Assembly: GCA_017442855.1 (NCBI GenBank)
Contig: JAFSPM010000049.1
Location: 17,490 to 81,489, forward strand
DNA length: 64,000 nucleotides
Origin: Bacteroidaceae bacterium
GTDB taxonomy: Bacteria > Bacteroidota > Bacteroidia > Bacteroidales > Bacteroidaceae
Reading direction: 5' to 3'
In this document: positions 7,189-24,135 of the stretch, one piece after another
Layout: every line of letters starts with the position of its first letter
Numbering within the stretch: position 1 is the stretch's first letter
Translations under genes and position numbers: made by a program
Notes under the pieces: generated by a model
Database searches by the model: none
The model's input: the letters and a program-made list of their open reading frames with translations, nothing else
Told to the model about the DNA's origin: nothing

Positions 7189-7215
7189 TCAAAATAATCA
7201 ATAAATGCAGATTAT

Positions 7216-7249
7216 TTTTGGCTAAATGCAAAAAAGTAACTATTTTTGC
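7216..7249 (+). promoter_or_regulatory. Bacteroidetes sigma70-type promoter upstream of structured RNA copy 1
   Basis: TTTG (-33) followed by TATTTTTG (TAnnTTTG, -7) at roughly the usual spacing. Confidence 0.55.
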
Positions 7250-7333
7250 AGATGAACAATCGTCCTTTTAGAGAAAAGGACTTTGAGATGTGTTCAAAAA
7301 CAGAATAAATGTAGCGTTTTAACATATTATCCT

Positions 7334-7521
7334 TATTCAGGAACCTCGACAATTTTTGAATCGTATAGGATGATCGGCAAGACGCTCACACCCACTGATT
7401 TACCTTCCACATTCACAAAGTAAGGAATCATGGGCGTGGGCTGTTGCATGATATCATACGATGGGCAGTCGAGGGCCTCTGAATAGATATTGGCAACAAC
7501 ACCCACGCTTTCTTTTTTTTT
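7334..7521 (+). ncRNA. Structured RNA / attenuator-like leader, copy 1
   Basis: Nested inverted repeats TATTCAG/CTGAATA, CCTCGAC/GTCGAGG, ATCGTAT/ATACGAT, CTCACACCCA/TGGGCGTGGG. Alternative helix GCGTGGG-CTGTTGC with GCAACA..CCCACGC, followed by a T-tract. Homologous to 22382-22606. Confidence 0.7.
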
Positions 7522-7781
7522 ATCAGTCCAAGGGTCTTCTTGTCATATCTATTCTCTATCCTGAATCAAGGCAGACATAGCTTCAATATACAAAATGAGA
7601 AACACATTTTGGCACTGGCGCAGGGTAGATATGGCAAGACTCTATTCCTTATAAATTCTAGTTTTAAGGTTTTTAAAATTGAAGCTATACTGGAGCAAGG
7701 TTTTATGCCTTGCTCCTTTAAAAGGAAACCAAAAACAAAAATATCCATAAAAAACGCGCAAGACTACAATTCTTCATGGTT

Positions 7782-7814
7782 AAAAAAGGGCGGGATTCGC
7801 AATCCCGTCCTTTT
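7782..7814. terminator. Bidirectional intrinsic terminator
   Basis: AAAAAAGGGCGGGATT-CGC-AATCCCGTCCTTTT, downstream of the M15 gene. Confidence 0.8.
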
Positions 7815-7849
7815 CAATTAATCAGACCTCTATATAGTTGATGTGATGT

Positions 7850-8386
7850 TCAGCCTCGCAGGAACAATATCTTCCTTCTGTTATTCTGAGGTCTGGCGGC
7901 AAAGTGCAGCCAATAGACATAATTCGTCGGATCAGCTGATTCACTCCGCATGGTTCGTCGCTCCAGAATCAGTTCATCGTAATCCATGTTGCCAGCATTG
8001 GCAATCCAGATGATAACATTCATCAACTGTACGGCATGTTCGGGACCCATGCAACGTATGTCCACCGCGCAACCTGTCAAATGGTTGCTGGTAGGACTTG
8101 GGGACAGTCCGGTTTCTATCATCGCCTGCATCACCTGTTGCGAGCGATAGCCCTGATTGATGATGATTGGCTCAACGTTTACCGACTCATCGTAATCCTC
8201 ATCTGCTGCAATCACATGCCAACGATTGTAGTAATATCGTAAATCTTCCAGCCAGTACTTGCAGAGGTTTTCCAAATTCCTTATGGCTTCCTCGGTAGGC
8301 TCGTTGCCATCTGCTGTTTTATAGCTTGTTTTGGTTAACTCTCCTAACGTAAAGTGCGGGGAGAACTTCTTAGTTCTATCTAACAT
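7850..8386 (-). CDS. Peptidase M15A family (D-Ala-D-Ala carboxypeptidase / endolysin-like)
   Basis: Motifs SPHFTLGEL, GYRS, SNHLTGCAVDI, W.H zinc ligands. Confidence 0.85.
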   Translation of the reverse strand: MLDRTKKFSPHFTLGELTKTSYKTADGNEPTEEAIRNLENLCKYWLEDLRYYYNRWHVIAADEDYDESVNVEPIIINQGYRSQQVMQAMIETGLSPSPTSNHLTGCAVDIRCMGPEHAVQLMNVIIWIANAGNMDYDELILERRTMRSESADPTNYVYWLHFAARPQNNRRKILFLRG

Positions 8387-8409
8387 AATTCTTACTATTT
8401 ATTTTACAG

Positions 8410-8447
8410 AAACCTTCCTGTCATAAGTGGACAAGTGGGTAAGTGAA
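8410..8447 (+). repeat. Island motif copy A: AAACCTTCCTGTCATAAGTGG plus 8-bp-period AAGTGRR repeats
   Basis: Identical over 21 nt to the reverse complement of 22788-22808. Confidence 0.85.
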
Positions 8448-8466
8448 TATCTGTAGATTATTTTCC

Positions 8467-10956
8467 TCAAGGCAGTTCTTTCAGTAACTTGCGATAAGCA
8501 CCATAAGCAACACGCTCAATCACTTTGTCTTTCAGAAGTCTGTCAATGCAACGCGAGGCACTGGATTGTGAGATGTTAAACGCATCCATCAGCTGTTGCG
8601 TCTTAAACTCGTCTTGCAACTTCCGGTAGCATTCTTCATAGCGTGAAGTACGGCGACGCACAACAAACTCCTTGTTCTGGTCGGCATAATAGTTAAACGC
8701 CATCTCACCGAAAAAGAACTGTTGACTGCGGTACTGAATCTCCATCACAAGTCGGCACAGACGCTTGTCGGTATTATCCATCGTCAAGGACTTATTCTCC
8801 TGCCACTCATCCCAATGACGCATCAGGATAAAGGGTAAAGAGATACCAATGCCATAGTAAGGGATGCGTTTCAGCAAGGAACGGTCGGCCTTGTCGCCAT
8901 TAAACTGGGCTATCTCCATATGGTTCGACTGCCAGTCGAAGGTTTCATCATTCAACGGCTCAATAGGAATCTCACCCTCTACCTTGTCAAGGCGGAAAGC
9001 CCACTCCTTCAGTGTTTCGTTGGCTTTCAAATCCACCTGTTGGTAGCGTTCCGCCATGCCTGTGTCGGGCAATGGAATCACTGCCAGTCTGGTACTCATA
9101 CCCGTGCCGTAGTTACGCTGGTTCACCTTGCGGTGCAGGGCGTATGGCGTGCCTGTGTAGATGAAGTTCCAGAACACGTTGAACATGCCCGTCACGCTCT
9201 CCTGGTTGGCATACATCTGACCGTCCTGTTCGTTGTGAAACGCCTTCAGCTCCAACACCTCACGGTCTTTCCAATCGCCACCCTTGTTGTTCTTCGTCAC
9301 GTTGTCCAACTCAGAGTCGAACGAGAACATGTGCAGGTTGATTTCCTTGCCTTGCACCATCTCCTTGGCAGCCAACATGTGACGGATAAACTCGCCCGTT
9401 GCCGTGCGTGCCGGGTGTACGCGTATGCCCACTACAGGCTTCTTCAAGGCTTCGCCCTTCTGTGCCTTGGTCGAGGTACTGCGCTCGGTACGACCCTCTT
9501 TATAGCGGTTCACGGCATCGATGCCCAGCTGGTCAGCTTGAATAATCGGTTCTATAATCTTAAAATAAAACTTCTCAATCACATTCTTTCCAGAGCCAGG
9601 ATCACCGATAATGAAGATACTGTAGTTCAGCCTACGCATAATCTCGGGGTCATACCAGAAATGATACCACGCACGAGTCATCAGTGTGCCAAACATGGCA
9701 CCACTGGAGAACAATACGGCAGGTAATTTATGCGGATGCACATTGATGAACAGTTCCTTCATGCAGGGAAAGTGGTCGGCAAGTGCCTGTAAGTCATCTG
9801 CCCATTTATCCAATGGCAGCTGTGCATAGATGTCTTCTTCTTTTTTGGACGGAGAACTGGCAATTGATGATTGAGCATTATCCCCTGTGGAGTTAGGCGT
9901 TATATGATCATGATAGCTTTTACCGGTGACCGACAGGATAGCTGCCTGCATCTCTTTCGAAGGGTAGGGGTTCAGACTTTTCTTCTCACGGTCGGAGAGG
10001 TTGGAAGCTGCATCCTTAACGGTGGCTTCCACATTCTCATTACGTTCGTTGATGATTTCCTGCACCCACGACTGTGCCCGTAACACTGCCAATGCCTCGG
10101 TTTTGTCGCCATCGAGCATAATCAACAGGTCGGAAGCCAGTTTCAAGCTCTCCTTGTGGCGGTTGCTGTCTTCCTTGCAAGGTAGCTTTGCAGCAAAACG
10201 CTGGTTGATGATCTGTTGCAGGTCGTGACCACGCCATATCACTGGCAGCGCCACTTGCTCAGCAGCCACCTGCCCGCCCTTTGCAGCTGATGGTCTATCT
10301 GTCTGACGGGCCACGTCATCAGTGTTAGTAGCACCACTATTGCCAGCCCTGTATTGATCATTGTATTTCTTGCCAAATTCTTCGTTTTCATACGTAAACA
10401 ATTTTTCTTCGTTAATACTGATAATGTCATTTGCTGTCGTTATGAAGGCGCCACGACAACCATCCTTGCATGACTCATCGAGTTGTAAATCCAGTTTGTT
10501 GGAAAAGTCTTTTTGATTATCAATTAGATTACCTACTTCAACATCTGCCGTAAACACCACCTTCAAACCGTGTCCAGATGGTGTTACATACACCAGCAAT
10601 ATCCTGGCTTTGTCCTCTTCCGACAGACGGCTATAGGCTGTTTCCCATAGCTGACGCACATCCCCTTTCAGGTGGTCGTAGTCGGCTACCACCAGTCCAT
10701 TCAGGTTGACATGCTTCTGGAGGCGCCAGCATCCTTTCACGTTCTCTTTATTCTCCGACACGTCAAAGGTACAGATAAATACCATCAATGGCAGACTCCT
10801 CTTCTTCATTTCGTAGGCAGGCTTGTTGCCTTTCTCGTATTCCTCACGGGCTTCCCTTACCGTCCGAGCCACCTTTGACGACCTGACTATTGTCCAGAAC
10901 TGCTGGCGATTTACTGTTACTGTTGGCTTATCATACCACTGTTGAACGCAAAACAT
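8467..10956 (-). CDS. BT4734/VirE N-terminal (AEP primase-like) domain + DUF3987-like P-loop ATPase/helicase + C-terminal HTH
   Basis: Motifs KKRSLP, GLVVADYDH (DxD), TPSGHGLK, DESCKD..R; Walker A GDPGSGK; wHTH-like C-terminus (SQSSASRCIDRL..DKVIERVAYGAY). Confidence 0.8.
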   Translation of the reverse strand: MFCVQQWYDKPTVTVNRQQFWTIVRSSKVARTVREAREEYEKGNKPAYEMKKRSLPLMVFICTFDVSENKENVKGCWRLQKHVNLNGLVVADYDHLKGDVRQLWETAYSRLSEEDKARILLVYVTPSGHGLKVVFTADVEVGNLIDNQKDFSNKLDLQLDESCKDGCRGAFITTANDIISINEEKLFTYENEEFGKKYNDQYRAGNSGATNTDDVARQTDRPSAAKGGQVAAEQVALPVIWRGHDLQQIINQRFAAKLPCKEDSNRHKESLKLASDLLIMLDGDKTEALAVLRAQSWVQEIINERNENVEATVKDAASNLSDREKKSLNPYPSKEMQAAILSVTGKSYHDHITPNSTGDNAQSSIASSPSKKEEDIYAQLPLDKWADDLQALADHFPCMKELFINVHPHKLPAVLFSSGAMFGTLMTRAWYHFWYDPEIMRRLNYSIFIIGDPGSGKNVIEKFYFKIIEPIIQADQLGIDAVNRYKEGRTERSTSTKAQKGEALKKPVVGIRVHPARTATGEFIRHMLAAKEMVQGKEINLHMFSFDSELDNVTKNNKGGDWKDREVLELKAFHNEQDGQMYANQESVTGMFNVFWNFIYTGTPYALHRKVNQRNYGTGMSTRLAVIPLPDTGMAERYQQVDLKANETLKEWAFRLDKVEGEIPIEPLNDETFDWQSNHMEIAQFNGDKADRSLLKRIPYYGIGISLPFILMRHWDEWQENKSLTMDNTDKRLCRLVMEIQYRSQQFFFGEMAFNYYADQNKEFVVRRRTSRYEECYRKLQDEFKTQQLMDAFNISQSSASRCIDRLLKDKVIERVAYGAYRKLLKELP

Positions 10957-11373
10957 TTGTCAATCTCGCTGGTTAAAGTGTACAACTCCCTCCTTATCTC
11001 CATCAGTCCTTTACTCTTGATGCTGATCCATGCTGTGATGGCACCGTCTTTCTTGGTGAAACACACCTTCAGGTTGTCCTTGTTAATCAAGTACGTGCCC
11101 TTGGGCATGGTTGGCTTCTTCACCTGTATGTCCTTAGTCAGCTTTTCCAGTTCCTGCTGGAAGAAGGCCGCCTTGTCGGCCACATCATCCGGACATTTCA
11201 GTTCTACGCACATCAGCGGGTTCTTGCCTGTGGTGGCGTAGCGCTTTGAGCGTCCCACCTTCTTCACATCCTTCTGCGAGGGCGTACCCTCCGGCTTGTG
11301 GTGTCACTTCGATTGAGTTGTCGTCAAACACCCTGGTGTTCGACTTGAAACTTTTTACTACTTTCTTCATCAT
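10917..11373 (-). pseudogene. Small basic hypothetical protein, apparently split by a frameshift
   Basis: ORF 11185-11373 (ATG after a purine/A-rich leader) overlaps ORF 10917-11267, whose frame stays open up to 11303. Joined, they read MMKKVVKSFK..EVTP/KPEGTPSQKDVKKVGRSKRY. Confidence 0.5.
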
Positions 11374-11444
11374 GATTAATTGTTTGATTCTAACGCCCCT
11401 TCCTTTATTCTTTTCTCCTTATTTTCCCCTTTTCCTTTCTTTTT

Positions 11445-11512
11445 CACTGTATGGATGTGCCGCCTACTGACTGCAAGCAGATATGTAGGCTACACACATC
11501 CATACAGCAGTG
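11445..11512. other. Long intergenic stem-loop
   Basis: CTGTATGGATGTG/CACATCCATACAG, GCCTAC/GTAGGC and CTGC/GCAG nested arms. Confidence 0.7.
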
Positions 11513-11515
11513 TTT

Positions 11516-11809
11516 TTACTTGACATTGATTTTGTCGATATAGATGGTTGTCGCCTGCATCGCCTCGCCCGTCTGCTGCGAGTTCCATTCGCGTACCACC
11601 ATCGAGCATTGCACCCGATATTCGCGTGTGGGGTCGAACTTCGGACAACTCACAGCTTTCTCGCCCGTTATTTCCCCTAAGAATGTGTCGATGCCGTCGG
11701 TCATCTTCAGGGTCACGGCATTGATGACCTTCTGCTCACCTGTTTTCTTGTCCACATACTGGCGTGTGGACAGCGCACTCTGATTCAAAATTCTTACTGT
11801 ACTTTCCAT
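11516..11809 (-). CDS. Small beta-rich protein, possible OB-fold ssDNA-binding protein
   Basis: 97 aa with alternating beta-strand pattern (RQYVDKKTGEQK, DGIDTF.GE, VREW) and a position upstream of the primase-helicase. The fold is inferred. Confidence 0.55.
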   Translation of the reverse strand: MESTVRILNQSALSTRQYVDKKTGEQKVINAVTLKMTDGIDTFLGEITGEKAVSCPKFDPTREYRVQCSMVVREWNSQQTGEAMQATTIYIDKINVK

Positions 11810-12019
11810 TTTGATTTGTTTTTTAGAAAAGCCCATCCTTCTCCTTTTTGCTTTTTCCTTCGTCGTTTATCGCAGTCCTTTTGTTGCGACAGTGCAAATA
11901 TCGACAGAAAAGGGATGGCAACCATCTAATTACTTTGCATCGTAAATTACAAAGTATATTTCAGCTGGTTCATCGTAGATTTCACGACGAAAACAGGTGT
12001 TTTCTGTATGGAAAGAAAT

Positions 12020-12475
12020 TTATTTGATGCCGAGTGCCCCCATGAATTTCTCAGCTATCATTCTTTGGCGTTCAAATATCCTGTCGCCCTTCAAGGGTTC
12101 GAACGTTTGCCAGTGGTGATAGGGCTTTTGCAAGATACCGCTTGCTGCCAGTGGCTTTTGAATGGATTGGTAATCGGGTGCGAAAGTGGTGTGTGTGCCG
12201 CGCATGAGGTGGTTGATTCTTTTGAAGAAAGCGGCTATCTCTGAAGGGTAATCCAAATAATCTACCAGTATGCGATAGATGGCCACCCACTGTGATCTTA
12301 CCGAGAAGTAAGGCATGACCGATATTATGGCATCCCTTACAACTGTATCGCTGAGCAATCTCTGTGTTTGCTCCATCCTCTTGTCTTCTATCACGATATC
12401 CCTCAAGCATTGCTGCATGCTGTAGAACATCGCTACCAACTCAGGCTTATCACCCTTCTCAATTGTCACTCTCAT
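12020..12475 (-). CDS. Hypothetical protein (island-associated)
   Basis: 151 aa ORF with its own TAACTTTG promoter box (minus strand, 12590-12597). Confidence 0.65.
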   Translation of the reverse strand: MRVTIEKGDKPELVAMFYSMQQCLRDIVIEDKRMEQTQRLLSDTVVRDAIISVMPYFSVRSQWVAIYRILVDYLDYPSEIAAFFKRINHLMRGTHTTFAPDYQSIQKPLAASGILQKPYHHWQTFEPLKGDRIFERQRMIAEKFMGALGIK

Positions 12476-12610
12476 CTGTTTACATAATTAGAGAGTTGGG
12501 AGTAAAAGGGCTGCCCTGCGTTTTTTGAATGGGGTGTTCAATACGAAAGATTCACCACAACTAACCGACTCCTGCGGCAAATTGCGGCGCAAAGTTAAGA
12601 AAAAAAAAAC

Positions 12611-13786
12611 TCACATATCTTTTTTATAAATAGTAGCTGGCACGTCTATATAATCAGGATTTGACAAGCCCACCTCGGAATTAAGGTAACTGGGGTCACA
12701 CAATACATAGTTAAAACCATCCAAGGCGATGAAATCACCTGGCACCTCGTCGTTAAACCTTATACCTGTGCTGGCATGGCCTGGATATTCCAGAATGATG
12801 GTATCCAATCCCAGTATCTTTTCTACCAGATAGGTAAAGATAATCGACCTGTCCTCACAGTCATTTAATGAATAGTAGAACACTTCCTCCTTATAATAAG
12901 ACTTCTCAAACCCGAAGTTTTCATTATCTGTCATATAATTAAACGCCGTATGCATGAACTTCAGCAGCATGTTCACTGCCTCCACCTCGTTCTTGCCCTC
13001 CATCGCATTCCTCAGAGGCGGCACCAACTGCTGCTCTACATCGGGGTCAAGGGGCTGCCTGGCATAGAATGAAAGGTCTATTACCTGCGGAATCTCGGCA
13101 TAGAAGTCCATCAAGTTCTTGTTTACACTTACCTCCGTAATCATTGACAGATCTGTGGCGGAATTGAAGATTTGGGGTGGCAGGTAGTTTTTCTCAAACT
13201 TTATCAATGATGAGTTGGTAAAATCAAGCGCATTCAGTTCCACCTGGTTCTTAGCATTATTAGAAAGAGATGGAAGGATTCGTCCTTGCATGTCGTGCGG
13301 CACGTCAGTATCAAACAGATAGTAACGCTTGCCCTCGTATGACATGAACGGAATGGAAGCTAACCGTTCTTCCGACGTACAGGCAACAAACAAATGGCGA
13401 TTGTTCAGACAAGCCACCTTGGCTTCATACCCCAATTGGTTCAGCAGGTAGGCTTCTAACACAGCCGCCTCGTTCTTTCCCAACACATTAAGGACTACCA
13501 GCTGCTCGCTTATTTTCGTCACCAATTTGTATATGGCCCATCCGTTCAGGTTCATGCTTTCCCGTAGGTTACTGCATACCGCAACAATAGGCTGTATTTT
13601 GGCTTTTGTCAATTGTTTCCATGCCTTGCTAACCCTATAATCCGACACCTCGGTTATGGTAAACTGAAGTGACTTGTCCATGGGAAATTCCACTGGAGTC
13701 CCATAGAAAAAAACACTTATATTCTGACCCATTGTAAAAGTCCATAGGCCAAATATCATTAGCAATGACACAAGCAACTTCTTCAT
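12611..13786 (-). CDS. Secreted protein with transglutaminase-like Cys-His-Asp triad
   Basis: Signal peptide; NDCEDRS...YPGHASTGI...CDPSY. Confidence 0.7.
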   Translation of the reverse strand: MKKLLVSLLMIFGLWTFTMGQNISVFFYGTPVEFPMDKSLQFTITEVSDYRVSKAWKQLTKAKIQPIVAVCSNLRESMNLNGWAIYKLVTKISEQLVVLNVLGKNEAAVLEAYLLNQLGYEAKVACLNNRHLFVACTSEERLASIPFMSYEGKRYYLFDTDVPHDMQGRILPSLSNNAKNQVELNALDFTNSSLIKFEKNYLPPQIFNSATDLSMITEVSVNKNLMDFYAEIPQVIDLSFYARQPLDPDVEQQLVPPLRNAMEGKNEVEAVNMLLKFMHTAFNYMTDNENFGFEKSYYKEEVFYYSLNDCEDRSIIFTYLVEKILGLDTIILEYPGHASTGIRFNDEVPGDFIALDGFNYVLCDPSYLNSEVGLSNPDYIDVPATIYKKDM

Positions 13787-13787
13787 T

Positions 13788-16700
13788 CTATTTTAACACC
13801 TGATTCATTCTTTCATAAACAACCTGTCTAGCCTCTTCCATTTTCTGAGCGGTTATGCGTGACAGTTCCACACCACCATCCTTAAATAATTCTTTATACT
13901 TCCTTTTCAATGTGATTTTATAATGGAAGTCCTTGGGCTTGCCTGTCAGGTCAAGACCAAAATCAATGGGTATGGGAGATTCAAGCATGTCAATATGATA
14001 GTCATACATCATGTCAAGGTTATTCGTTCCTCCAGCCATCACCTCATAACGGTCCCATTTTATAATAAAAGGAATAACTTCTATCACGCTTTCATTCAGT
14101 ATAAAATTCACTTCTATTTTATCTATCAGGTTGCGTTTCTTGTTCTTAAATCTCAGCTTACTTGCAATCTCATCAAAAGTGGTGTTGTCAATAAGTGTCA
14201 AGTTTTGACCTTTTAAAGTACCAGCAACCTTGGCTGATGGCAATATTGATTTCATCTCAGAATTTAAGGAACTTTGACCTGTCAGGTGGACATCTGCTAT
14301 ACCATCCAGAGAATTAATCATTGGAAACATTGAACTCACAGACGGCACAACCCGATGAAGTTGGGCAAGAAGAACATCCCGGCAATTTAGGTCGAATATT
14401 GCATATAGCTGATTCCGTTTCCTACTATCATAAACAACATCAACTTCAGCTTTACCCAAATTCGTTTTCATATTTAATGTTGCGCGAGCCATTCTGTCAT
14501 CCACTTCAACATTACCGCTTACCTGGTGAAATTCTGCCTCCTCATATATAGCCCTCTCGATATCCAATTGTATATCTAAAGTTAGGTTAGCAGGTATATA
14601 TATGGGGTATTTCTTTTTTGCCTTACTATAATCATTTGCTGTCAGTGATTCTTCCATCTCTTTTATGGAATGTTGCATGGCTATAGAATCTGTTGATTCT
14701 TGCCGCATAGCCTCACCTGAAAGAAAAGTTGAAGAAAAATCGTCAAAATCAATATTGTCAGCCATTAGACGTAAACTCCCCTCAATCCGCTGCGTGTTCA
14801 TGACACTGTCATTTTCAGAAATAAGGGCACCTGACAACAACATCTTAGTATTGCCTGATTGAACATTCAGTCTGCTCAAAATTAACTGATTATTCCGTAT
14901 CCCAACACGTGATTCACTGATATCTATTCTTTGGGGGAAGTAAGAGTTCACAATGGATGCTTTATTGAAATCAACCTGTCCTTTCACCTGCCAGTTTTTT
15001 AAAACAAGCTCATTGCCAGCGGAAGCGGAGGAAGGTTGGAACTCTGAAATCAGATTTAGCGTTGACAGCTGTATGGCCAGTTTGTTTTTGCCATCTATTA
15101 ACCTCACGTCATCAGCTTTTAGGACTGCAGCACCCTCCATCTTTTTCCGGTTTAGAGAATAAGCCTTAGAGCCTGCATGAAACTCACCACTCGCTACTGC
15201 TATTGCAGTTTTAGAGCCTAATTGTCCTCTTAGTCTGTTCCAATTTAAATGTGCAGTTATGGGCGTTACCATGCTTGAATCATTGTTCAACACTGTATTG
15301 GCGCGTAAAGCAAGTTTTGATATCACGCAAGATATGGTATCCCCATAAAGTAAGCTTAAAGTATCTATGACAGCATCACACGACAAAACCTCATCTGCTT
15401 CGATAAAATCACTCCTATTTTTCTTATACCCGACTGACATGTCAATATCTTTGGCATAAAGATTGAGTTTGTACTTGTCGCTTTGTGCCATCAGATTGTC
15501 TGTTCTTAGTTTTCCTTCAGCCCACAAACGATGAAAATTCAACTCTTTTAAGTCATTCAGATTAAAGGCAAAAGAAAGGTCAGAATCAACCTTACCACTC
15601 ATGTTGATGTCCACCGAATCAAACAGTTCAGTTCCAACACGTTGGAAGTCGATATTACATGCTAAATCACCTGTTATGAATGGATTTCGTGTAAAATCGT
15701 TTATACGCCCATCTACATACACCCTACTATCCATACCACTGAGTCTCATATCCGATATTTCAACAAAACAGGAATCTGGCATATACCTATTATAATTCAT
15801 GTTAAACGCAAGGTTTATTGCGTCTATACCTTGCTTTATGCGTTTCCTGTATATGCTACCAGCATTGATATTACCCTTCAGCTTTACATTTGGCATCTCT
15901 CCTTTGCCAAATTTTCCAGACAGTTCTACATTACACGATGTATTGCCATCTATCACATACTGATCCTTTGGCATCTTTAAGGGCAAATAGTCAATTAAAT
16001 CACCCAGATCAGATGTCATTAGGATTGCTTTTAAATCAACAAATGGCGTTTCGTCTTTGGCAATATTCGACACTTTTCCTTCCAGCTGAAACGGAAACTG
16101 ATCTACAAGTAGGGTTAGTCCATCTGCAGTTATGTCATGGAAATTTTCGGTAGCCTGACAACGTCCGTTCATTGTCACCATTAATTGGCGATTAGCAAAT
16201 GGAATATCACCTTCAATGCTCAATAGCGCATTAAAATCTTCTATGTTAAATGAAGGGTGTTGCGCATTCAAGTCTCCCCTAAGACGAAGATTCATGTTAT
16301 CAAGATGATAAATAGCGGACTTGATGCTATCAACGACAGTAATATTCAAATTATCAAATCGGACTTCATTAATATTGAATCCCATTTGTTTGTTTCTATG
16401 GTCTCCTGTCTTGGTATGCAAATTGATCTTCCGGCTTAAATCAGCATGTGCGCTAACCTCCTCCAGAAACACATCCTCAATGATTAGTTGTTTTCCTGTT
16501 ATCAGCTTTATCAGGTTGATCTTGCCGCCAAAAGTCTTAAATCCTATATTTAACGCTTCATTTGCATAATCACTATCCATATCATCAGGGGGTACTGCCA
16601 CCATACCTTGTTTAACCACCACACTGACAGAAGGCCATTCCGTAAGATAATCAAGACCTATCCTCTCACAATCAAACCTAACGTTGGTTCGCTCGCTCAC

Positions 16701-16841
16701 TTCTTTTTTCACCAGACTCATTAACACATCAGGTGTCAATACATAGAAACGTAGTACCAAGTAGGTTATTGCCGACAGTAACATCACTACTGCCGACAAC
16801 AAACCCACAATGAACGAGACAACTCTAATGATCTTGATCAT
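13788..16841 (-). CDS. AsmA-like membrane-anchored beta-rich protein
   Basis: N-terminal TM helix, ~1000 aa of beta repeats, C-terminus IEVIPF....RY....GG.NNLDM.YDYHI. Confidence 0.7.
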   Translation of the reverse strand: MIKIIRVVSFIVGLLSAVVMLLSAITYLVLRFYVLTPDVLMSLVKKEVSERTNVRFDCERIGLDYLTEWPSVSVVVKQGMVAVPPDDMDSDYANEALNIGFKTFGGKINLIKLITGKQLIIEDVFLEEVSAHADLSRKINLHTKTGDHRNKQMGFNINEVRFDNLNITVVDSIKSAIYHLDNMNLRLRGDLNAQHPSFNIEDFNALLSIEGDIPFANRQLMVTMNGRCQATENFHDITADGLTLLVDQFPFQLEGKVSNIAKDETPFVDLKAILMTSDLGDLIDYLPLKMPKDQYVIDGNTSCNVELSGKFGKGEMPNVKLKGNINAGSIYRKRIKQGIDAINLAFNMNYNRYMPDSCFVEISDMRLSGMDSRVYVDGRINDFTRNPFITGDLACNIDFQRVGTELFDSVDINMSGKVDSDLSFAFNLNDLKELNFHRLWAEGKLRTDNLMAQSDKYKLNLYAKDIDMSVGYKKNRSDFIEADEVLSCDAVIDTLSLLYGDTISCVISKLALRANTVLNNDSSMVTPITAHLNWNRLRGQLGSKTAIAVASGEFHAGSKAYSLNRKKMEGAAVLKADDVRLIDGKNKLAIQLSTLNLISEFQPSSASAGNELVLKNWQVKGQVDFNKASIVNSYFPQRIDISESRVGIRNNQLILSRLNVQSGNTKMLLSGALISENDSVMNTQRIEGSLRLMADNIDFDDFSSTFLSGEAMRQESTDSIAMQHSIKEMEESLTANDYSKAKKKYPIYIPANLTLDIQLDIERAIYEEAEFHQVSGNVEVDDRMARATLNMKTNLGKAEVDVVYDSRKRNQLYAIFDLNCRDVLLAQLHRVVPSVSSMFPMINSLDGIADVHLTGQSSLNSEMKSILPSAKVAGTLKGQNLTLIDNTTFDEIASKLRFKNKKRNLIDKIEVNFILNESVIEVIPFIIKWDRYEVMAGGTNNLDMMYDYHIDMLESPIPIDFGLDLTGKPKDFHYKITLKRKYKELFKDGGVELSRITAQKMEEARQVVYERMNQVLK

Positions 16842-16860
16842 CTTTCTCTACAATATTTTA

Positions 16861-18225
16861 TCAGAAACAAATACCAGCACCAATAACATGGCGAGATTTC
16901 TTTATCAAGTCTGCATCATCCTTTGAAACAGCAAAGCGATACTGGAAAGTATATCTTAACACTACGGGACCAATCTTACCCAACAGACCTATTTCGGGAG
17001 AAATCGCACTATGCACTTTCAAGGTAGGCTTTTCATACACTTTCCCTTCCACCTTCTCATCAGTAGCATTCTCCACGTATGAGTTCTTGACGTATGCTGA
17101 CCCATCCTCGTTCTCATACGTTCCGATGCCTGTAAAGCCAGGACCAAAGAAAATCCACACAGGTGCCTGTTTGACAGGACATATTGTAAAGCCGGCTGAA
17201 ATATTAAGCTCTGCATCTGAAACCTTGTCAAAATTGCTTCTCATAACTTCGAATATGTCCGTATTAAAGCTTAGGCTGAAATAACTGCCGGTTTTACGCG
17301 TCTTGTATGAGCCAACGGTAATACCAATTGGAGCACTCCCGCTATACTCGTATGCAATGACAGCAGATTTTTGATTTCTGTTTTGCTGCAGCAGTTTTAT
17401 CCTCTTCACCTGTTCGCTGGCAAGCAGGGAGTTACTGCAATTCTGATCAATAACCCTTTGATAGAGTTCCAATGCTTTATCATATTCACCATTCTCCTTG
17501 TACACCTCAGCATTGTTGTAATATTGCGTGCAGTCATTACCAGACAATCTCCTGGCCTCATAGCGTTTGTTGGACGCATTGGAATCTTGTGGATTTAGCT
17601 GCATGATCTTACCGTATAAATCGTCCGCTTTCGAGTAATCCAACAAATCAAAAGCATCGGCAGCCAGCTTTTGCCATGTTTCAATGCTGTCAATGTTGGC
17701 AATCAGCTGCTCCAGGTTATTATCTGCAGGGCAGTCAGAACACTCCTTGGCTATGTTGTACTGCTCTCTTGCCTCGGTGTACATGGAATTCTGGAAGAAC
17801 TCAATACCACGTTTCCTATACTCATAATAACAGCCATAAACAAAATCCGCATCCGGATCCAATAATTGATACTGCTTTAGTTCCTTTGGTTCCAAGGTTG
17901 CATCCAGTGTTATGGGAGCGAAGTCATCAGTACGAATGGTAAGTTTTCTACCACGATACCTCCTGCCTGTATTAAATTTGAGGTAATAGAAGGTTTCCTC
18001 GCCTTTTTCTTCTTTATTGTAAACATCAACTGTTTTGTCATGAGTTGATTCAAAAGATAGTTGCATATTGGAAGGGCAAGAGATTACTATGCCTGCTTCA
18101 GTATCTTTTCCAGAGAACACATTAAGCGAAGTCGTCACATCTTTGACCTCCAATGTACGTTGAGCAAATGCAGTGCCAGCTACAGTTAACAACAAGGCCA
18201 GCAGAGTAAAAAAACGGTTTTTCAT
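16861..18225 (-). CDS. TPR-containing outer-membrane protein with C-terminal beta-barrel
   Basis: Signal peptide, TPR helices (YSKADDLYGKIMQLNP; GEYDKALELYQRVI), barrel-like C-terminus ending GAGICF. Confidence 0.7.
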   Translation of the reverse strand: MKNRFFTLLALLLTVAGTAFAQRTLEVKDVTTSLNVFSGKDTEAGIVISCPSNMQLSFESTHDKTVDVYNKEEKGEETFYYLKFNTGRRYRGRKLTIRTDDFAPITLDATLEPKELKQYQLLDPDADFVYGCYYEYRKRGIEFFQNSMYTEAREQYNIAKECSDCPADNNLEQLIANIDSIETWQKLAADAFDLLDYSKADDLYGKIMQLNPQDSNASNKRYEARRLSGNDCTQYYNNAEVYKENGEYDKALELYQRVIDQNCSNSLLASEQVKRIKLLQQNRNQKSAVIAYEYSGSAPIGITVGSYKTRKTGSYFSLSFNTDIFEVMRSNFDKVSDAELNISAGFTICPVKQAPVWIFFGPGFTGIGTYENEDGSAYVKNSYVENATDEKVEGKVYEKPTLKVHSAISPEIGLLGKIGPVVLRYTFQYRFAVSKDDADLIKKSRHVIGAGICF

Positions 18226-18245
18226 ATTCTTAATTTTTAACGTTA

Positions 18246-19241
18246 TTAGTCTTCTATCAATGATCTCACTATGTCAAAGTCGCCCAAACTGAAAATCTCA
18301 TCACGAGTAAGCACCCTTCCTTCCAGTTTCTCTGGTTGCCAAGTGCGTACTTGTATCAAAGGGTTTAACTCATCCTGAAAGTCAATCATCAGGAAAACAA
18401 AGCCCACATCTCTGTATCGGTCACTATTCCACTGCTGCTTTAGGGTCACGCCATAAATATCCGTGAGCTTAGGGTGCTGTATTACCTCCACCTCGTCAAA
18501 CAACACGTTGATGTATTTGTTACTGGCAAACACCTTTTTCAGGTTGGCAATATATTCCGCTTTGGTTCGTTTCTGATAAACAACACGTTCACGGCCCAGC
18601 GACTGGAGGGCACGATCGCTCTTGGGCTTCTCACGGATAACCTTTCCTGTAATGATCAATGCATTGTCGGAGAAAACAGACTCAATATACTTTAAGTCTT
18701 TGCGGTTATAAGATGTCCTGTAGTTCTCAACAAAGTCAACGATCACCTGTCTTCTATAAAGATCTTGTACTGATTCATGCTCATCCATTATCTCCTTATA
18801 TTTATTCTCGTCTATGGATATCGAAATGTCATCAATCTGTCCTACAGGCGTAAATGTGAATACCAGCTCTTGTTCCTGACTGTCATCATCAGCTTCAAGC
18901 ATCACTACAGGCACATTTCGCACTTGATATCCTGATGATGTCTGAATACAGATTTCCTCTATTTTTGAGACAGGACAAGACATCGGACTTGTTTTCCACA
19001 TCTCACTCAATATTTTTTGAGCCTCAGATGTCAGTTCTTTCTTCACATTCGGCTTGCCACCATTCATGACAGCACTATTACATGCTATCAGGAAATTTGA
19101 AAGGTTGCGTTCTATAGATGACTTAAGTTGTGCCTTTCCTTCCAAACCATCGGTTATTTCAACTTGCGTAGTCTCAAGCTGTGCATATAAGTATCCTGTA
19201 GAGACAACACATAATAAAAATAATATCGCCAGTTTTTTCAT
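18246..19241 (-). CDS. Secreted hypothetical protein, C-terminal NTF2-like domain
   Basis: Signal peptide; FVENYRTSYNRKDLKYIESVFSDNALIITG pattern. Confidence 0.65.
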   Translation of the reverse strand: MKKLAILFLLCVVSTGYLYAQLETTQVEITDGLEGKAQLKSSIERNLSNFLIACNSAVMNGGKPNVKKELTSEAQKILSEMWKTSPMSCPVSKIEEICIQTSSGYQVRNVPVVMLEADDDSQEQELVFTFTPVGQIDDISISIDENKYKEIMDEHESVQDLYRRQVIVDFVENYRTSYNRKDLKYIESVFSDNALIITGKVIREKPKSDRALQSLGRERVVYQKRTKAEYIANLKKVFASNKYINVLFDEVEVIQHPKLTDIYGVTLKQQWNSDRYRDVGFVFLMIDFQDELNPLIQVRTWQPEKLEGRVLTRDEIFSLGDFDIVRSLIED

Positions 19242-20365
19242 TTTAATAATGTTTTAAGATAATGTTGAGGTATATTAGTAATAAAATCAGCTTTCAACAC
19301 AGGCTTTGATATGAAGACATCTTTCGCTGTTGTCTTCACTCGCAGCATATGGATAAAATTGAGCGTCTTATGGTTAAAAACCACAATACTCTCCAGTGTT
19401 CCGTCTTCCAGCTCACCTGTATGGGCAAAACATGTAAAATCTTCAGAAAAAATATCCATGAACACATGCAAAGGAACAGTTATTTCAGGTGTGAAGTGTC
19501 CATATTGACGGTGGGTAATTTTCAGGTTCACTTTCTTTCCATTACTATGGATAAGAAAAAGATTGTTCAGACTCAATACAGGGTAGTCCGTTGCAAACAA
19601 AGGGATATAGTTGTCGCCTTGTTTCCTGTAATATACGTCCGATGATAAGGTCTGCAGTTGGTAGCGTACACCTGTTTTTACATATATATCTTTTACATAA
19701 TGCTTTAACCCGACACCACTTTTCAGCGTTTCATCATCATGCATCGAGGCAGTCTTACTTTCTGCAATTTTAATGTATAAAAGCTCGTCAGACTCCTGTT
19801 TGTCAGTCCCTTCTATCAACTCTCTATATAACGGGAATGACAACGTCAATACATGAGTTCCGTACTGCCATACCCCACGCCCTTGATTATCCTCTAAAAA
19901 CAAAGAGAAGCTTGCGGGCATATCCATCTCCTCCAACACCTTGCGAAGGGATCTGAACAAGCCATTGCCATAGTCTATACCGTCTAGTTTCAGTGTCACA
20001 GTATATTCCACCAATTTGGACATCACGCCTTCAGATTCCTGTTGTTCACAAAGTTCCAGAAAGAAACGCTCTATAAAGTCACAGAATTGTTGGCCAGCTA
20101 TTCTCTTCGTTTCCCGACTGAACAAGGAAATCCCTGCGTGACAGAGAAAACCTGATTCATTATACTGGATAGTTATAGACTTTCCCCTCAAAATCTGCGG
20201 AACCATAATCAGAGAATCCTTCTTAGGCAGGTTGTCCAAATGAAGCCCCTCTACCAGCTGTCTGACCTTCCGGCTGGAATACTCAATGTCTGTATAAGGT
20301 GTAGCCAAAACCTGTGAAAGGCACAGACACATGGTCAAAAATAATACCATTCTTCGTATTGTCAT
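19238..20365 (-). CDS. Secreted hypothetical protein
   Basis: 375 aa with signal peptide; ATGA overlaps with both neighbours. Confidence 0.75.
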   Translation of the reverse strand: MTIRRMVLFLTMCLCLSQVLATPYTDIEYSSRKVRQLVEGLHLDNLPKKDSLIMVPQILRGKSITIQYNESGFLCHAGISLFSRETKRIAGQQFCDFIERFFLELCEQQESEGVMSKLVEYTVTLKLDGIDYGNGLFRSLRKVLEEMDMPASFSLFLEDNQGRGVWQYGTHVLTLSFPLYRELIEGTDKQESDELLYIKIAESKTASMHDDETLKSGVGLKHYVKDIYVKTGVRYQLQTLSSDVYYRKQGDNYIPLFATDYPVLSLNNLFLIHSNGKKVNLKITHRQYGHFTPEITVPLHVFMDIFSEDFTCFAHTGELEDGTLESIVVFNHKTLNFIHMLRVKTTAKDVFISKPVLKADFITNIPQHYLKTLLK

Positions 20366-22272
20366 TTTTGCGTGGGTCTTAAAATGTTCTTAATTTCATT
20401 TTTAACAGCACAATAGCCATTTATGAGGTCTTCCTCTGCCAGTATATACTTGCTTAGCCATTCTTTGGATTTCTGGAAGTCAAACTCCACCGTATTACCA
20501 TCCAGATACATGTCTGCCAGTTCCTTCATAGCCTTGGTACTATTCTTTGCAGCAGCTTTTTGAAGCAAATCTTTAGCCTTGGCTACATCTTCACTAACGA
20601 GAATGCCTTCCCTGTACATGATTCCCATTTCTGCCATAGCATCAGGGTATTGCATATCCACCGCACGTTGATAGTAAGACAATGCACGGCTTTCATCAAC
20701 ATCAACGCCAATACCTTCCTTATAGGCCCATCCTAAACGATATGAGGCATACGGACTTCTTTTTAATACTGCTTTCTCATAGCACCTGATGGCTTCCTTA
20801 GGGTCAGTACTGTCATCATACTGTTCCAAAATAGCATCACCGCAAAGAACCATAGCATCTGTATATCCCGAATCATAAGCCCGTTGATAAAGTTCTTGCG
20901 CTTTTCTCATATCCTTTTCAACCCCATTACCTTCTTGATATAGCTTTGCCAAGTTAAGCATGGCAAACAGGTTATTCTTGCCAACTGCTTCCATGAAATG
21001 TGCTACAGCCATACGCATATTCTTTTTCGTTCCCAAACCAGAAGCAATCATACAAGCGAGGTCGTTTAGGGCAGATGCGCTGGAAGACGCTTCTGTGCTT
21101 TTCCTGTTAAGCAATCTCCTTAACTCAAGATTAGAAGTTTTGCTTTCATCTGGGATGGCCGTATAAGATAATCCATCATAATTCTCAGGAACCTTGAGAA
21201 GTATTATCTCGTCTTCGTTTTTTTCTCCTTTTTTCATACCATCCACAAAGGTTTGCTGAACAACGGTTCCAATTAGCCTTTCTCCAAGAGTATGCAGAAG
21301 GAATTCAAATTGTTCAGTTTCGTTTGAAGCTTCCTTGTTCTCTGTTTCATCAGGAGAGTAAAACGATGATTTAAAGCCATCAAAATCCACGTCAAACAGT
21401 TCTGCAACAACCGAACTCATGCCTGTTTTAGGTGTTCTCTCAACTCCAGCATCTTGATTTTTTGCAACAAATCGGAAAGACATGTCCTCGTCTGCCAATT
21501 TAGCCTCTGTCTCTAAGGAACCGTTACTGTTTATTCCCAAGTTTTTCAAAACGGCTGAGTGATCATTCAAACGCATCCACAGATTACCCTCTTGGGAATA
21601 TAAGTCCAATATCCACTGTTCATGCCCATTGGAATCAATATTTCTTGACACCCATCTTCCTAAAAGTTTTCCGTCTGCCTGCACGCTTCTTACCTCAGGC
21701 ACGACTCTCAAAGAGTCAACAGTTAGCGTGTCCTCCTCAGCTTCTGTAGTCAATGTTTCAGATAAAACAACAGAAAATTTAGGCTTATCAACTGTCTCTG
21801 CCAACTTTACAGCCCCTACTTCTTCTTCCTCTGTAATCGCATTATCCAAGCCTGTTTCCTCTGATTCTGCTTTTGGCACGATAGCCTCTGTAACCAGAAG
21901 ATTTTCCTTCGACTTGAAGTCTTTCTCTATCTCATCTATCCTCTGCTGTATAATGCTGGCATTGTCAGCATCAGGCTTAAGTTTAAGGTACTGGCTATAG
22001 CTTATCTGAGCCTTTCTTTGCAAGTTGGCATCATACTTCATGCTATAGAAAATGTCACCGAGCTGAAGATAAGGGTCAGGCAATCCTGGCGCCTTGGTCA
22101 ATAGCTCCTTGTAGATATCAATTGCTTTATCCGTATCTCCCTTCTTTTGGGCGACACTGGCCTGGTAGAAAAGTTTCAATAGCTGTTCTCTTGTTACTTG
22201 CTGGGCCGAAACAGAAATGTAGCACACACAGAGCAACAAAACAATAACAGATGACCTTCTAAATAATCTCAT
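20362..22272 (-). CDS. TPR + Sel1-like repeat protein, secreted
   Basis: Signal peptide from ATG 22272; N-terminal TPR; several Sel1 repeats (AMLNLAKLYQEGNGVEKD, LGWAYKEGIGVDVD). Confidence 0.85.
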   Translation of the reverse strand: MRLFRRSSVIVLLLCVCYISVSAQQVTREQLLKLFYQASVAQKKGDTDKAIDIYKELLTKAPGLPDPYLQLGDIFYSMKYDANLQRKAQISYSQYLKLKPDADNASIIQQRIDEIEKDFKSKENLLVTEAIVPKAESEETGLDNAITEEEEVGAVKLAETVDKPKFSVVLSETLTTEAEEDTLTVDSLRVVPEVRSVQADGKLLGRWVSRNIDSNGHEQWILDLYSQEGNLWMRLNDHSAVLKNLGINSNGSLETEAKLADEDMSFRFVAKNQDAGVERTPKTGMSSVVAELFDVDFDGFKSSFYSPDETENKEASNETEQFEFLLHTLGERLIGTVVQQTFVDGMKKGEKNEDEIILLKVPENYDGLSYTAIPDESKTSNLELRRLLNRKSTEASSSASALNDLACMIASGLGTKKNMRMAVAHFMEAVGKNNLFAMLNLAKLYQEGNGVEKDMRKAQELYQRAYDSGYTDAMVLCGDAILEQYDDSTDPKEAIRCYEKAVLKRSPYASYRLGWAYKEGIGVDVDESRALSYYQRAVDMQYPDAMAEMGIMYREGILVSEDVAKAKDLLQKAAAKNSTKAMKELADMYLDGNTVEFDFQKSKEWLSKYILAEEDLINGYCAVKNEIKNILRPTQK

Positions 22273-22381
22273 ATTCAGTAACACATTGTAAATAACACAC
22301 TTATCGCACCGACACATCACATAAAATATGCCTTGCGACTCTCCTGCAAAAAAAAAGTTTCTGGAAAGGGACTTGTGCCCT

Positions 22382-22606
22382 AAAAAAGAAAAAGCGTGAG
22401 AGTCTGTACCTGTTACTCGTCCCACCTTTAGAGGCTCTCGCATTGCCCATCTGATCAGAACGAGCAACGCAGAAGCCCACGCTGTGATATGATAATGCCT
22501 TGCCTTGTGATAAAGGCATAAGACTGACATTAAAAACATATCCCAATGAACATCTATCGTTGCCTTGTCTTTTGATCAGATTGAAACTTGCGAGATTTCT
22601 AAAGGT
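22382..22606 (-). ncRNA. Structured RNA / attenuator-like leader, copy 2 (5' of cargo operon)
   Basis: ACCTTTAGA/TCTAAAGGT, CTCGCA/TGCGAG, ATCTGATCA/TGATCAGAT, GCAACG/CGTTGC, GATATG/CATATC. Alternative helix GCGTGGG..GTTGCTCGTTC with GGACGAGTAAC..CTCACGC, then a T-tract. Confidence 0.72.
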
Positions 22607-22760
22607 CAAAGACAAAGCGCATAATAAACGCTTTTCCAACTATGTCTGCACCCACCCTTCACTTTAAAACTTTTACATATTAAGGTTACAGGGCAACTGC
22701 AACTGCAAAGGAAAAGATTTATTTTTGTTTTTGCAAGTATTTATAAGAAAAGTTTTTTTT

Positions 22761-22963
22761 TACCCACTTTCTCACTTTCTCACTTTCCCACTTATGACAG
22801 GAAGGTTTTTTGATGTAGAATTGGATAGTTATAATTTGTAAGGTAAAATATTTACAAGAATACTATAATAATATTAATAATATTATTATAGTATTCTTGT
22901 AGTATGCATACAAGTGTATTTGCAGAACATTCTTGTCATAAGTGGGTAAATGAGCAAGTGGGC
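22761..22963. repeat. Inverted motif copies B and C bracketing a perfect 49-bp palindrome (22853-22901)
   Basis: CCCACTTATGACAGGAAGGTT (22787-22807) and AACATTCTTGTCATAAGTGGG (22926-22946); central TACAAGAATACTATAATAATATTA-A-TAATATTATTATAGTATTCTTGTA. Confidence 0.9.
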
Positions 22964-22997
22964 AACCTCCCTTACTTTGACAAGATACTGCCCTAAA

Positions 22998-23058
22998 GTT
23001 GTATAGTATCAAACTGGAGGTTGTATAGTATCAAACAGTGAGTTTGCTAGTATCAAAC
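22998..23058 (+). repeat. Three iteron-like repeats, 22-bp period
   Basis: GTTGTATAGTATCAAAC at 22998 and 23020; GTTTGCTAGTATCAAAC at 23042. Confidence 0.85.
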
Positions 23059-23117
23059 TTGGTCGTGCCTGTTTATCAGTAAAGACAAATCTTTTTCTAC
23101 ATTATTTATTCGAAACA

Positions 23118-23149
23118 TTTGGTAGTTTCGTGAAAAATTACTAACTTTG
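23118..23149 (+). promoter_or_regulatory. Promoter of the HU-like/smalltalk operon
   Basis: TTTG at 23118-23121, 20-nt spacer, TAACTTTG at 23142-23149. Confidence 0.7.
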
Positions 23150-23266
23150 CAGCAAAGCTGCAAAACTCAATGAAAGTCGCGAATTTCGCATGGGTTAACA
23201 GCTCTCTCGCCTCAAGGAATTCGAATCAAGGAAGTAGCCCAATCCAACTTAAATCTTTTATTTATT

Positions 23267-23920
23267 ATGGCAACTAACAGAATTGCTTTGGGGATTAATC
23301 TCCGCAAAAACAAAATCAACGGTAACTCTGGCTACGGCAAGTATTACCCAGTGGTAGATCGTCAGCAAACCCTCAACTTGCGCGGTTTTGCAGAGCACAT
23401 GGTAGATCACGGATCGAAATGGAACCGTGGTGAGCTGGAAAGCGTGCTCTTCCAAATCACCGAGTGCCTGCCCGAGCTGGTGGCACAAGGCGTTCCCGTG
23501 CAGCTGGGCAGTCTGGGTACCTTCTACCCAACGGCACAGATTGTAAAGGGTGCCAGTGTGGCCAGCATCGAAGAGATGGACGGTCTGAACCCTAACACTT
23601 TGGTGAAGGCTATCCACATCCGCTTCAGACCCGACGCTACCAAGCTGGATAACCTCTGCGGTCCTGCCTTCAAGAACGCCTGCACCTTGGAATTGCGTAA
23701 CATCATCGAGACCGAGAAGGTAACCATTGATGGCAAGGTGAAGGTATTGCAGCAGCTTACCCCTATCTCTACAGCTGTGGCAATGACCCGTGCAGGCAAT
23801 GGTGGCTCAACCTCTGGCAGTGGCAGCAGCAACAGCGGCACTGGTTCCGGCACCAACAATGGTGGTAACACGGGTGGCAATACCGGAGGCAACGACGGTG
23901 GCGACGGAATGCAGGTATAA
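23267..23920 (+). CDS. HU-related (histone-like) DNA-binding protein with Gly-rich tail
   Basis: GKYYP, FAEHMVDHGS, ELVAQGVPVQLGSLGTFYPT, IHIRFRPD; G/S/N/T C-terminal tail typical of the Bacteroidetes HU_rel family. Confidence 0.85.
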   Translation: MATNRIALGINLRKNKINGNSGYGKYYPVVDRQQTLNLRGFAEHMVDHGSKWNRGELESVLFQITECLPELVAQGVPVQLGSLGTFYPTAQIVKGASVASIEEMDGLNPNTLVKAIHIRFRPDATKLDNLCGPAFKNACTLELRNIIETEKVTIDGKVKVLQQLTPISTAVAMTRAGNGGSTSGSGSSNSGTGSGTNNGGNTGGNTGGNDGGDGMQV

Positions 23921-23931
23921 GGAGGTGAATT

Positions 23932-24042
23932 ATGAAGAACAAAGACCTTTGGAAGACGGTGATTCAGTTCGCCATCTCGATACTGACAGCAGCACTGACT
24001 GCCATGAGCACCACAAGCTGTATGGGACACGGACCATTCTGA
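23932..24042 (+). CDS. Smalltalk-family small membrane protein (36 aa)
   Basis: Below ORF-track cutoff. MKNKDLWKTVIQFAISILTAALTAMSTTSCMGHGPF; GGAGG upstream; usual position after an HU-like gene. Confidence 0.85.
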   Translation: MKNKDLWKTVIQFAISILTAALTAMSTTSCMGHGPF

Positions 24043-24085
24043 GGAACCATACACTTTCATCCCAAACAGGATGCACACAAAAGAG

Positions 24086-24119
24086 AAAGTCCGATAAGTA
24101 AACGCTTATCGGACTTTTT
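24086..24119. terminator. Intrinsic terminator between convergent genes
   Basis: AAAGTCCGATAAG-TAAACG-CTTATCGGACTTTTT. Confidence 0.8.
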
Positions 24120-24135
24120 GTAAAAACGGCACAAC

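Follow-up and report, generated by a model that had tools for sequence, protein, structure and literature searches.

An integrase-free island with a predicted SaPI-type origin at the rsgA-DUF2027 site of a Bacteroidaceae genome

The alpha protein of phage P4 combines primase, helicase, and winged helix, with 8-bp iterons at a distant origin, ori1, and a second site (crr) directly behind the gene; P4 also has an integrase, a tRNA attachment (att) site, and capsid-hijack genes. A similar layout, without integrase, tRNA att site, or capsid-hijack genes, occurs in a ~16-kb island located between rsgA and DUF2027 in the 64,000-nucleotide stretch of a Bacteroidaceae bacterium analyzed here (contig JAFSPM010000049.1, positions 17,490 to 81,489; hereafter the window). 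In Staphylococcus aureus pathogenicity islands (SaPIs), Rep is described as using its C-terminal winged helix to bind iterons that form opposed sets with an AT core between them (PMC9371898). As far as that account goes, the pri-rep-ori region of SaPI/PICI elements (PICI, phage-inducible chromosomal island) shares with our island a primase-helicase with a winged helix, opposite iterons around an AT core, element-specific repeats, and accessory cargo. The island differs in having no integrase, att site, or packaging genes, in carrying its own lysin and a BT4734-family archaeo-eukaryotic primase (AEP), in the position of its origin, 4-17 kb upstream of the rep gene rather than directly behind it, and in an extra array after this gene. 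The PICI/SaPI pairing of a primase-helicase with a cognate iteron origin is found here on sequence alone, and neither a PICI/SaPI integrase nor a fixed-site att core was found in the island or inside the related elements scanned.

For one BT4734-like AEP, primase, polymerase, and end-joining activities have been reported, its DUF3987 partner being a 5'-3' helicase (PMC11724360). The AgaPP-AgaPH system of Flavobacteriia, as presented there, has in common with the island a BT4734-like AEP with a lysine in motif II, defence genes nearby, and, possibly, a PriCT-DUF3987-type helicase, but its two genes are separate and neighbour an integrase and a tRNA, whereas the island encodes a fused protein, matched iterons, HU-smalltalk genes, a lysin, and no integrase. 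The Bartonella run-off locus is alike, in the account of PMC2697382, in having a phage-type origin and a helicase in the chromosome without excision and a proposed role in amplifying adaptive genes; that locus is single, conserved, and coupled to a gene transfer agent, whereas the islands occupy many sites and have no capsid. The neighbourhood of smalltalk family 350024 (10.1101/494179) and the HU-HIG proteins (PMC5499826) similarly bring together a DNA-binding protein, a small membrane protein, an amidase, and a VirE-like gene in Bacteroidota, for which cell crosstalk or mobile-DNA blocking was proposed. HU-HIG proteins are said to be without operon links (PMC5499826), and no origin, iteron code, cargo, or insertion appears in the relevant parts of these two accounts. 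A search of open-access main texts found no description of this element.

The ~16-kb block is an insertion at the rsgA-DUF2027 site, and close relatives lack it. Among the seven with both flanks visible, the spacing between the two genes is 34-37 bp in G123, G110, and G174 and 253 bp in G019; the remaining three hold inserts at this position (G010 and G173, 5.5 kb; G094, 1.9 kb), which we rejected as copies of the element, their genes being unrelated. Two metagenome contigs, L091 and L092, ~91% identical to the flanks, are empty alleles at base level: they align with the window up to 7822 and 7825 and pick up again at 24119 and 24130, placing host DNA up to ~7815-7825 and again from 24119-24130. 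The insertion point is the T-tract of a host terminator, the island ends share at most 4-5 T, and comparison of the window with the empty alleles reveals no att repeat. The first-pass annotation of the window had proposed a search of relatives for an empty site, now found in G123, G110, G174, G019, L091, and L092, and had let the island span 7189..24135; its first part, 7189-7814, had to be rejected as host DNA that is present in the empty alleles.

This stretch after rsgA (7190-7814) is non-coding and conserved, its identity to sister genomes exceeding 90%. It has a Bacteroidota-type promoter match (7217-7248) and a terminator (~7785-7815); it might hold a small RNA or a small gene, and an Rfam search that included it gave no match. 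The empty site of L091 (9213-9366) and L092 (9202-9363) is filled by a ~155-bp palindromic repeat with two CAAAACAAnTTGTTTTG palindromes, which resembles a miniature inverted-repeat transposable element or a repetitive extragenic palindrome (REP) and has at least nine copies in the window's genome. At the same site in G094 (locus L013), a 1.4-kb insert is flanked by two copies of a 65-bp segment from the DUF2027 3' end.

The island carries a 21-bp motif that, as had been noticed earlier, occurs in both of its modules, exactly at 8410-8430 (+) and 22788-22808 (-), with a degenerate third copy at 22925-22945 (three mismatches); the chance expectation has a mean of 0.02, and none of 100 shuffles reaches three copies. 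The motif is the fixed box beside three 8-bp tandem repeats, forming an iteron array, and is not itself a palindrome. A 49-bp AT sequence is a perfect palindrome; the 2.76-Mb genome has 21 of these with arms of at least 12 bp, none longer than this one, and the two inverted arrays around it give a layout that looks like a SaPI-type origin. The two arms described in the first-pass annotation stand, but they diverge from this origin-like site (22768-22965) and not around the cargo, which is co-oriented with the left module. It resembles a SaPI-type iteron origin more than the hairpin-primed one suggested earlier. Among the joints listed in eight runs (contigs only), none is a fold-back at the palindrome, and no match to a protelomerase was obtained.

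Other candidate sites were rejected. The triple 22-bp repeat is not a second family-wide site, as 1/38 HU upstream regions scores as high and 13/38 score above shuffles. The 11451-11503 hairpin is a REP-like repeat of the host, present ~17 more times in the genome; run X10 has it between HU and smalltalk. A palindrome pattern search was dropped as a count in 50 genomes, the control giving as many matches as the real pattern.

A search of 185,579 genomes yielded 65 loci, 50 of these genomes having 1-13 matches each, and 30 elements of 4.9-19.8 kb show both arms on one stretch, with ATPase regions 35-82% identical to that of the window. Their order is fixed: smalltalk and HU pointing outward, the AT palindrome (arms of at least 11 bp, near the HU gene in the 30 complete elements), cargo, the SSB-like (single-stranded-DNA-binding-like) gene, a ~175-residue gene, the primase-helicase, and a lysin pointing outward. 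The lysin lies 3' of the primase-helicase in 88/107 loci, and its slot is taken by three unrelated types: an M15 peptidase, a lysozyme-like protein, and, in one element, a phage lysozyme. No tyrosine or serine recombinase was found inside the elements among single representatives of each cluster (271 for the initial 65 loci, 179 for the complete elements with their edges), most open reading frames (ORFs) below 100-110 residues being skipped. One insertion-sequence transposase lies just outside one element, and no relaxase or conjugation gene gave a Pfam match among the island and family ORFs. Phage and plasmid collections contain no match to the primase-helicase, and viral contigs one locus. 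In gut Bacteroides modules (20 loci), about half share the divergent HU/primase-helicase layout, without a perfect palindrome. The island belongs to a widespread family of integrase-free islands of gut and rumen bacteria, and its host, to judge from the relatives, is probably a Bacteroidaceae member from gut or rumen.

At each of three fixed places, a complete element carries an 8-9-bp repeat of its own; the second element in the window's genome, on contig C37, has a different repeat there. For the cognate comparison, 37 stretches with primase-helicase and palindrome were taken, of which the 30 with an HU gene within 1.5 kb were kept. The sequence behind the primase-helicase stop matches its own origin best in 22/30 elements, has it among the top three in 27/30, and exceeds the 95th percentile of non-cognate pairs in 26/30; none of 100000 shuffles reaches the cognate mean.

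The repeat also varies with residues of the C-terminal winged helix, in agreement with the co-variation of motif and primase-helicase that had been set as a check. In the window's subfamily (54 of 62 loci, 8 with unclear arrays being dropped), Q in the helix is paired with A at repeat position 3 in 37/38 loci and other residues in 0/16, while P is paired with TT in 16/16. Helix types are scattered across the ATPase tree, and phylogenetically independent pairs agree in 4/4, ~4/5, and 7/7 cases, with p<0.05 for 7/7 alone. Linkage alone could explain the match at the array behind the stop, because this array is ~100 bp from the helix codons. A linkage-free test is the distant origin: helix residues predict its repeat, 4-16 kb away, for 27/34 arrays, a set that includes near-identical pairs (shuffled mean 10.7; reached in 0/20000 shuffles). 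The code is further weakened by the arrays of L044 and L068 and the mixed arrays of the window itself, which miss the prediction, and by L048 and L070, not picked up by the pattern, whose addition gives 27/38. We regard the tracking of each element's iteron by its winged-helix residues as strong comparative evidence for a coded origin.

The 829-residue protein that carries this helix is a predicted initiator-helicase-primase. Its assignment to the BT4734-like AEP family follows from the PF08800 match and motifs I, II (Lys for His), and III, and residues D92/D94, G-x-K132, D160/D165, Walker A (451-458), Walker B (544-549), and R623 are invariant in 24 homologues. In a structure model (pLDDT 51), with middling scores throughout, the N-terminus matches the AEP domains of NrS-1, RepB', and S-2L (Z 5.4-6.2, root-mean-square deviation 4.9-18.5), and residues 773-829 match winged helices (Z up to 5.4, deviation 2.0, 53 aligned residues). 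A DUF3987-type helicase is suggested by the invariant Walker motifs; there is no Pfam match to DUF3987 (PF13148), and the model is unreliable in the ATPase part. A PDB sequence search gave nothing below E 0.32 and Foldseek no match at E<0.001, the ATPase domain being poorly modelled.

The M15, AEP primase-ATPase, HU-like, and smalltalk genes named in the first-pass annotation are all borne out by profile matches (Table 1). Of the "small proteins" of the left module, the SSB-like one stands, while the small ORFs at 10917-11415 turn out to be a single ~175-residue gene broken by a frameshift: two frames match a single protein of one relative, and runs X5, X7, and X8 have one base fewer than the window and lack the frameshift. 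This gene has no Pfam, PHROG, or Atlas match. The SSB-like protein has no Pfam match, and its Atlas feature matches (0.94), to clusters in which 30% of the members have DUF3127 and 13% SSB, are a lead only. Also upheld is the lack of recombinase, transposase, and capsid genes, none being found in profile scans of 17 island ORFs (seven of them also against PHROG); Pfam and PHROG scans reveal no capsid, terminase, or tail gene in the island either. On this contig, no tyrosine recombinase lies nearer to the island than ~23 kb. A sigma-70 promoter scan gave matches close to chance. The window's copy is probably past its prime, because the partner gene is frameshifted and the repeats are worn.

Cargo and arms are exchanged at the rsgA-DUF2027 site, because the cargo differs in strains X5 and X7 and the divergence of the two arms is unequal in X5. 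In these strains, which have both arms and whose flanks are 99% identical, the left arm is present up to 11952, where the contigs run on into other sequence; the swap rests on this continuation and not on gaps in contigs. X5 resumes at 22765, and neither strain shows the window's cargo at the junction. Compared with the window, X5 has 142 differences over 2515 bp in the left arm and 1 over 952 bp in the HU arm. The cargo has a GC content of 40.9%, against 45-48% around it, and no defence domain was found in it by Pfam. In the family, cargo often includes type I, II, and III restriction-modification, toxin-antitoxin, Abi, and Fic genes, Bro-N/KilA-C antirepressors occur among the genes, and one element carries a PD-(D/E)XK Rpn-type gene.

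An exported 391-residue protein of the window's cargo (12611-13786) shows, by eye, a Cys-His-Asp pattern like that of transglutaminase or papain folds; two paralogues are located elsewhere in the genome beside other exported-protein operons.

Table 1 Features of the island in the window
Feature	Position	Strand	Basis or remark
Whole island	7815-24118		Base-level alignment to empty alleles; ends uncertain by ~10 bp
M15 peptidase, signal-less, endolysin-like, last gene of replication operon	7850-8386	-	PF08291 E 1.6e-5; phrog_894 endolysin E 1.9e-17
Third iteron array (box and three 8-bp repeats), directly after primase-helicase stop	8410-8450	+	Position kept in relatives
BT4734-like AEP primase, P-loop ATPase, C-terminal winged helix, 829 residues	8467-10956	-	PF08800 E 9.7e-7
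Conserved ~175-residue gene, frameshifted in window's strain	10917-11415	-	Family in 29 loci
SSB-like (DUF3127-related), first gene of core operon	11516-11836	-	Atlas; family in 36 loci
Swappable cargo	11953-22764	-	Missing from X5 and X7 junctions
Cargo ORF, 151 residues	12020-12475	-	
Six-gene operon, exported TPR, Sel1, and NTF2-like proteins	12611-22269	-	Domain matches
Cargo-side iteron array, predicted origin, box inward	22768-22808	-	Layout conserved
Perfect AT-rich palindrome, 49 bp, predicted origin centre	22853-22901		
HU-side iteron array, predicted origin, inverted relative to cargo-side array	22925-22965	+	
Three 22-bp direct repeats upstream of HU promoter	22998-23063	+	
Bacteroidota-type promoter match, HU-smalltalk operon	23118-23149	+	One of two matches in 7000-24300
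HU-HIG (HU-like), glycine-rich tail	23267-23920	+	PF18291 E 5.7e-11
Smalltalk membrane micro-protein, 36 residues	23932-24042	+	NF033879 34.6 bits, cut-off 24.7
Terminator-like hairpin, right end	24086-24117		Absent from empty alleles

The elements are found at many sites: 87/106 right flanks are unique, and the other 19 form 8 groups, in four of which primase-helicases with no more than 38-43% identity share one flank (which, in one of the four, may be cargo). In 25 pairs of related elements, the point where identity stops varies between 22 bp ahead of the last stop codons and 71 bp beyond them. No shared end motif was found, 5/29 elements have a repeat at both ends (score of at least 16), and a tRNA adjoins the end in 1/29. 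Junction duplications range from none to 31 bp, the latter in L098, where a piece of a host gene that is single in a relative is duplicated exactly. Searches for transposon features, namely terminal inverted repeats, a target duplication of fixed length, and a transposase, were negative. Joined flanks of L032 are seen in 1/14 relatives, without the peroxiredoxin gene that adjoins the element, and none of the ten relatives fetched for L128 showed both flanks. Two copies at different sites of one genome are 99.2% identical over 6.1 kb. The mixed junctions seem to fit end-joining better than a recombinase; end-joining at breaks would account for the ragged ends and for junctions as different as a few shared T and a duplication of 31 bp.

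We favour, with a probability of about 0.5, the reading that the island is an element without an integrase whose replication unit is of the satellite type, and that it is likely copied in place in the chromosome, released when its own lysin bursts the cell, and spread by recombination; it is from the sequence that we infer replication and transfer. In this model, the winged helix would bind the inverted arrays and the AT palindrome would melt, after which the protein's ATPase and AEP domains, together with the SSB-like protein, would start two-way replication without excision, as modelled on SaPI origins, the escape replication of phages, or replication of the run-off type. The third array, between primase-helicase and lysin, might let the primase-helicase control the operon or assist the origin, and smalltalk and the lysin would release the amplified DNA. 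RecA-type exchange via the arms or host flanks could then swap cargo, arms, or whole elements at occupied sites, and new sites might rarely be reached through end-joining at breaks.

Several observations weigh against this reading. In the uninduced source run X1, the island has a contig depth of 37 and its flanks 34-39, X5 and X10, likewise uninduced, show no depth peak at the origin, and no end-to-end (circle) joint occurs among the joints listed in the eight runs. The depth check proposed at the outset thus came out flat, in contigs of uninduced samples and for a copy that may be inactive. The earlier picture of one element with own replication sites and cargo but no classical integrase is supported, its amplification and its route of transfer being conjectural. 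The ends lie mostly within ~70 bp of the last genes, whereas random replication fragments should often carry host genes; 0/87 loci are circularly permuted, and no gene for packaging or uptake is known for the elements. Repeats are mismatched in 3/30 elements (L048, L070, L137), and a tyrosine-recombinase fragment lies ~0.9 kb outside L123. The AgaPP partner helicase inhibits AgaPP end-joining in the published account (PMC11724360), and with AEP and helicase fused here, the helicase may by analogy block this activity.

A broader proposal, which we put forward tentatively and at somewhat less than even odds, is that these islands form a new class of mobile elements that is abundant in Bacteroidales, self-amplifying and self-lysing, without recombinase or capsid, with a helix-iteron code, insertion by end-joining, and a role as main cargo shuttle. 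If so, the helix-to-iteron code would let a dozen islands coexist in one genome, and restriction, toxin-antitoxin, and other cargo would travel mainly on them.

The alternative that survives best, even if we find it unlikely, is a true phage satellite or mobilisable element, which would form a circle through a recombinase acting in trans, replicate from its own origin, and be packaged by a helper phage. The SaPI-like origin, the antirepressors and defence cargo, the gene order whose break always falls between smalltalk and lysin, the repeats at both ends of some elements, and 10 tyrosine-recombinase matches in the host genome all agree with it. It is harder to reconcile with ends that are ragged and share no motif, with at least 87 different sites, with a tRNA next to an end in only 1/29 elements, with the single locus in viral contigs and none in phage or plasmid collections, and with the lack of a circle junction among the joints listed.

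Less likely again is a host-serving amplification or suicide module, in which stress would cause the primase-helicase to amplify defence cargo and flanks and the lysin to kill the cell or release DNA, different sites arising by ordinary rearrangement. Run-off replication from a phage-derived origin is known, as described for Bartonella (PMC2697382), restriction-modification, toxin-antitoxin, and Abi genes abound in the family's cargo, and four flank groups reuse a site for divergent primase-helicases. The Bartonella locus, however, stays at one conserved place, whereas the islands are found at scores of sites, with up to 13 matches per genome; their origin code diversifies as in competing replicons, and the window's cargo shows no defence domain. 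The least probable reading seems to be decay, in which prophages or integrative elements would have lost their integrase and the repeats would be operators of a self-regulating gene without replication. In its favour, AgaPP elements of the same AEP family carry an integrase (PMC11724360), remnants (solo arms, solo arrays) are frequent in the window's genome, depth is flat, and the window's copy has a frameshift. Independent losses, however, would not have given 30 elements an identical pair of ends without any trace of an integrase; origin and helix still match at protein identities of 35-82%, and one genome has 99.2%-identical copies at two sites.

The reading of an integrase-free element replicated in place would also bear on several gene families, expanded in gut Bacteroidota, on whose role there is no agreement. 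HU-HIG, smalltalk, amidase, and BT4734/VirE genes are here linked as parts of a single replicon whose origin can be tested, which would explain why they occur in repeated copies. Should the islands indeed move without an integrase, detection based on integrases and att sites misses a large route by which defence genes turn over in bacteria of rumen and gut. The code that relates helix to repeat might furthermore provide a set of orthogonal origins for Bacteroidales genetics.

Some minor observations concern other members of the family. The second complete element in the window's genome (G000:C37:219200-232900) has a split primase-helicase, type III restriction cargo, and a GGTCAAAA-type repeat at the origin and after the gene. 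Loci L107 and L108 are a single element with two tandem HU-smalltalk-palindrome arms. In the gut Bacteroides BT4734 modules L154, L160, L164, L168, L158, L162, and L167, dispersed TATGAGAAAT repeats before the gene or a triple TGTCCTTT after its stop, read by eye, are perhaps their own iterons. Remnants in the window's genome include smalltalk back to back with M15 (C37:30200-31300), a solo HU-smalltalk arm (C37:305500-306500), a solo M15 gene (C6:288-794), and an HU-smalltalk-amidase module (C31:41500-43300). Solo window-type boxes with 8-bp repeats lie between genes on G000:C14 at 73045, 83132, ~84430, and 86269; two of them flank AAA ATPase and lipoprotein genes, and they may be scars or sites used in trans.

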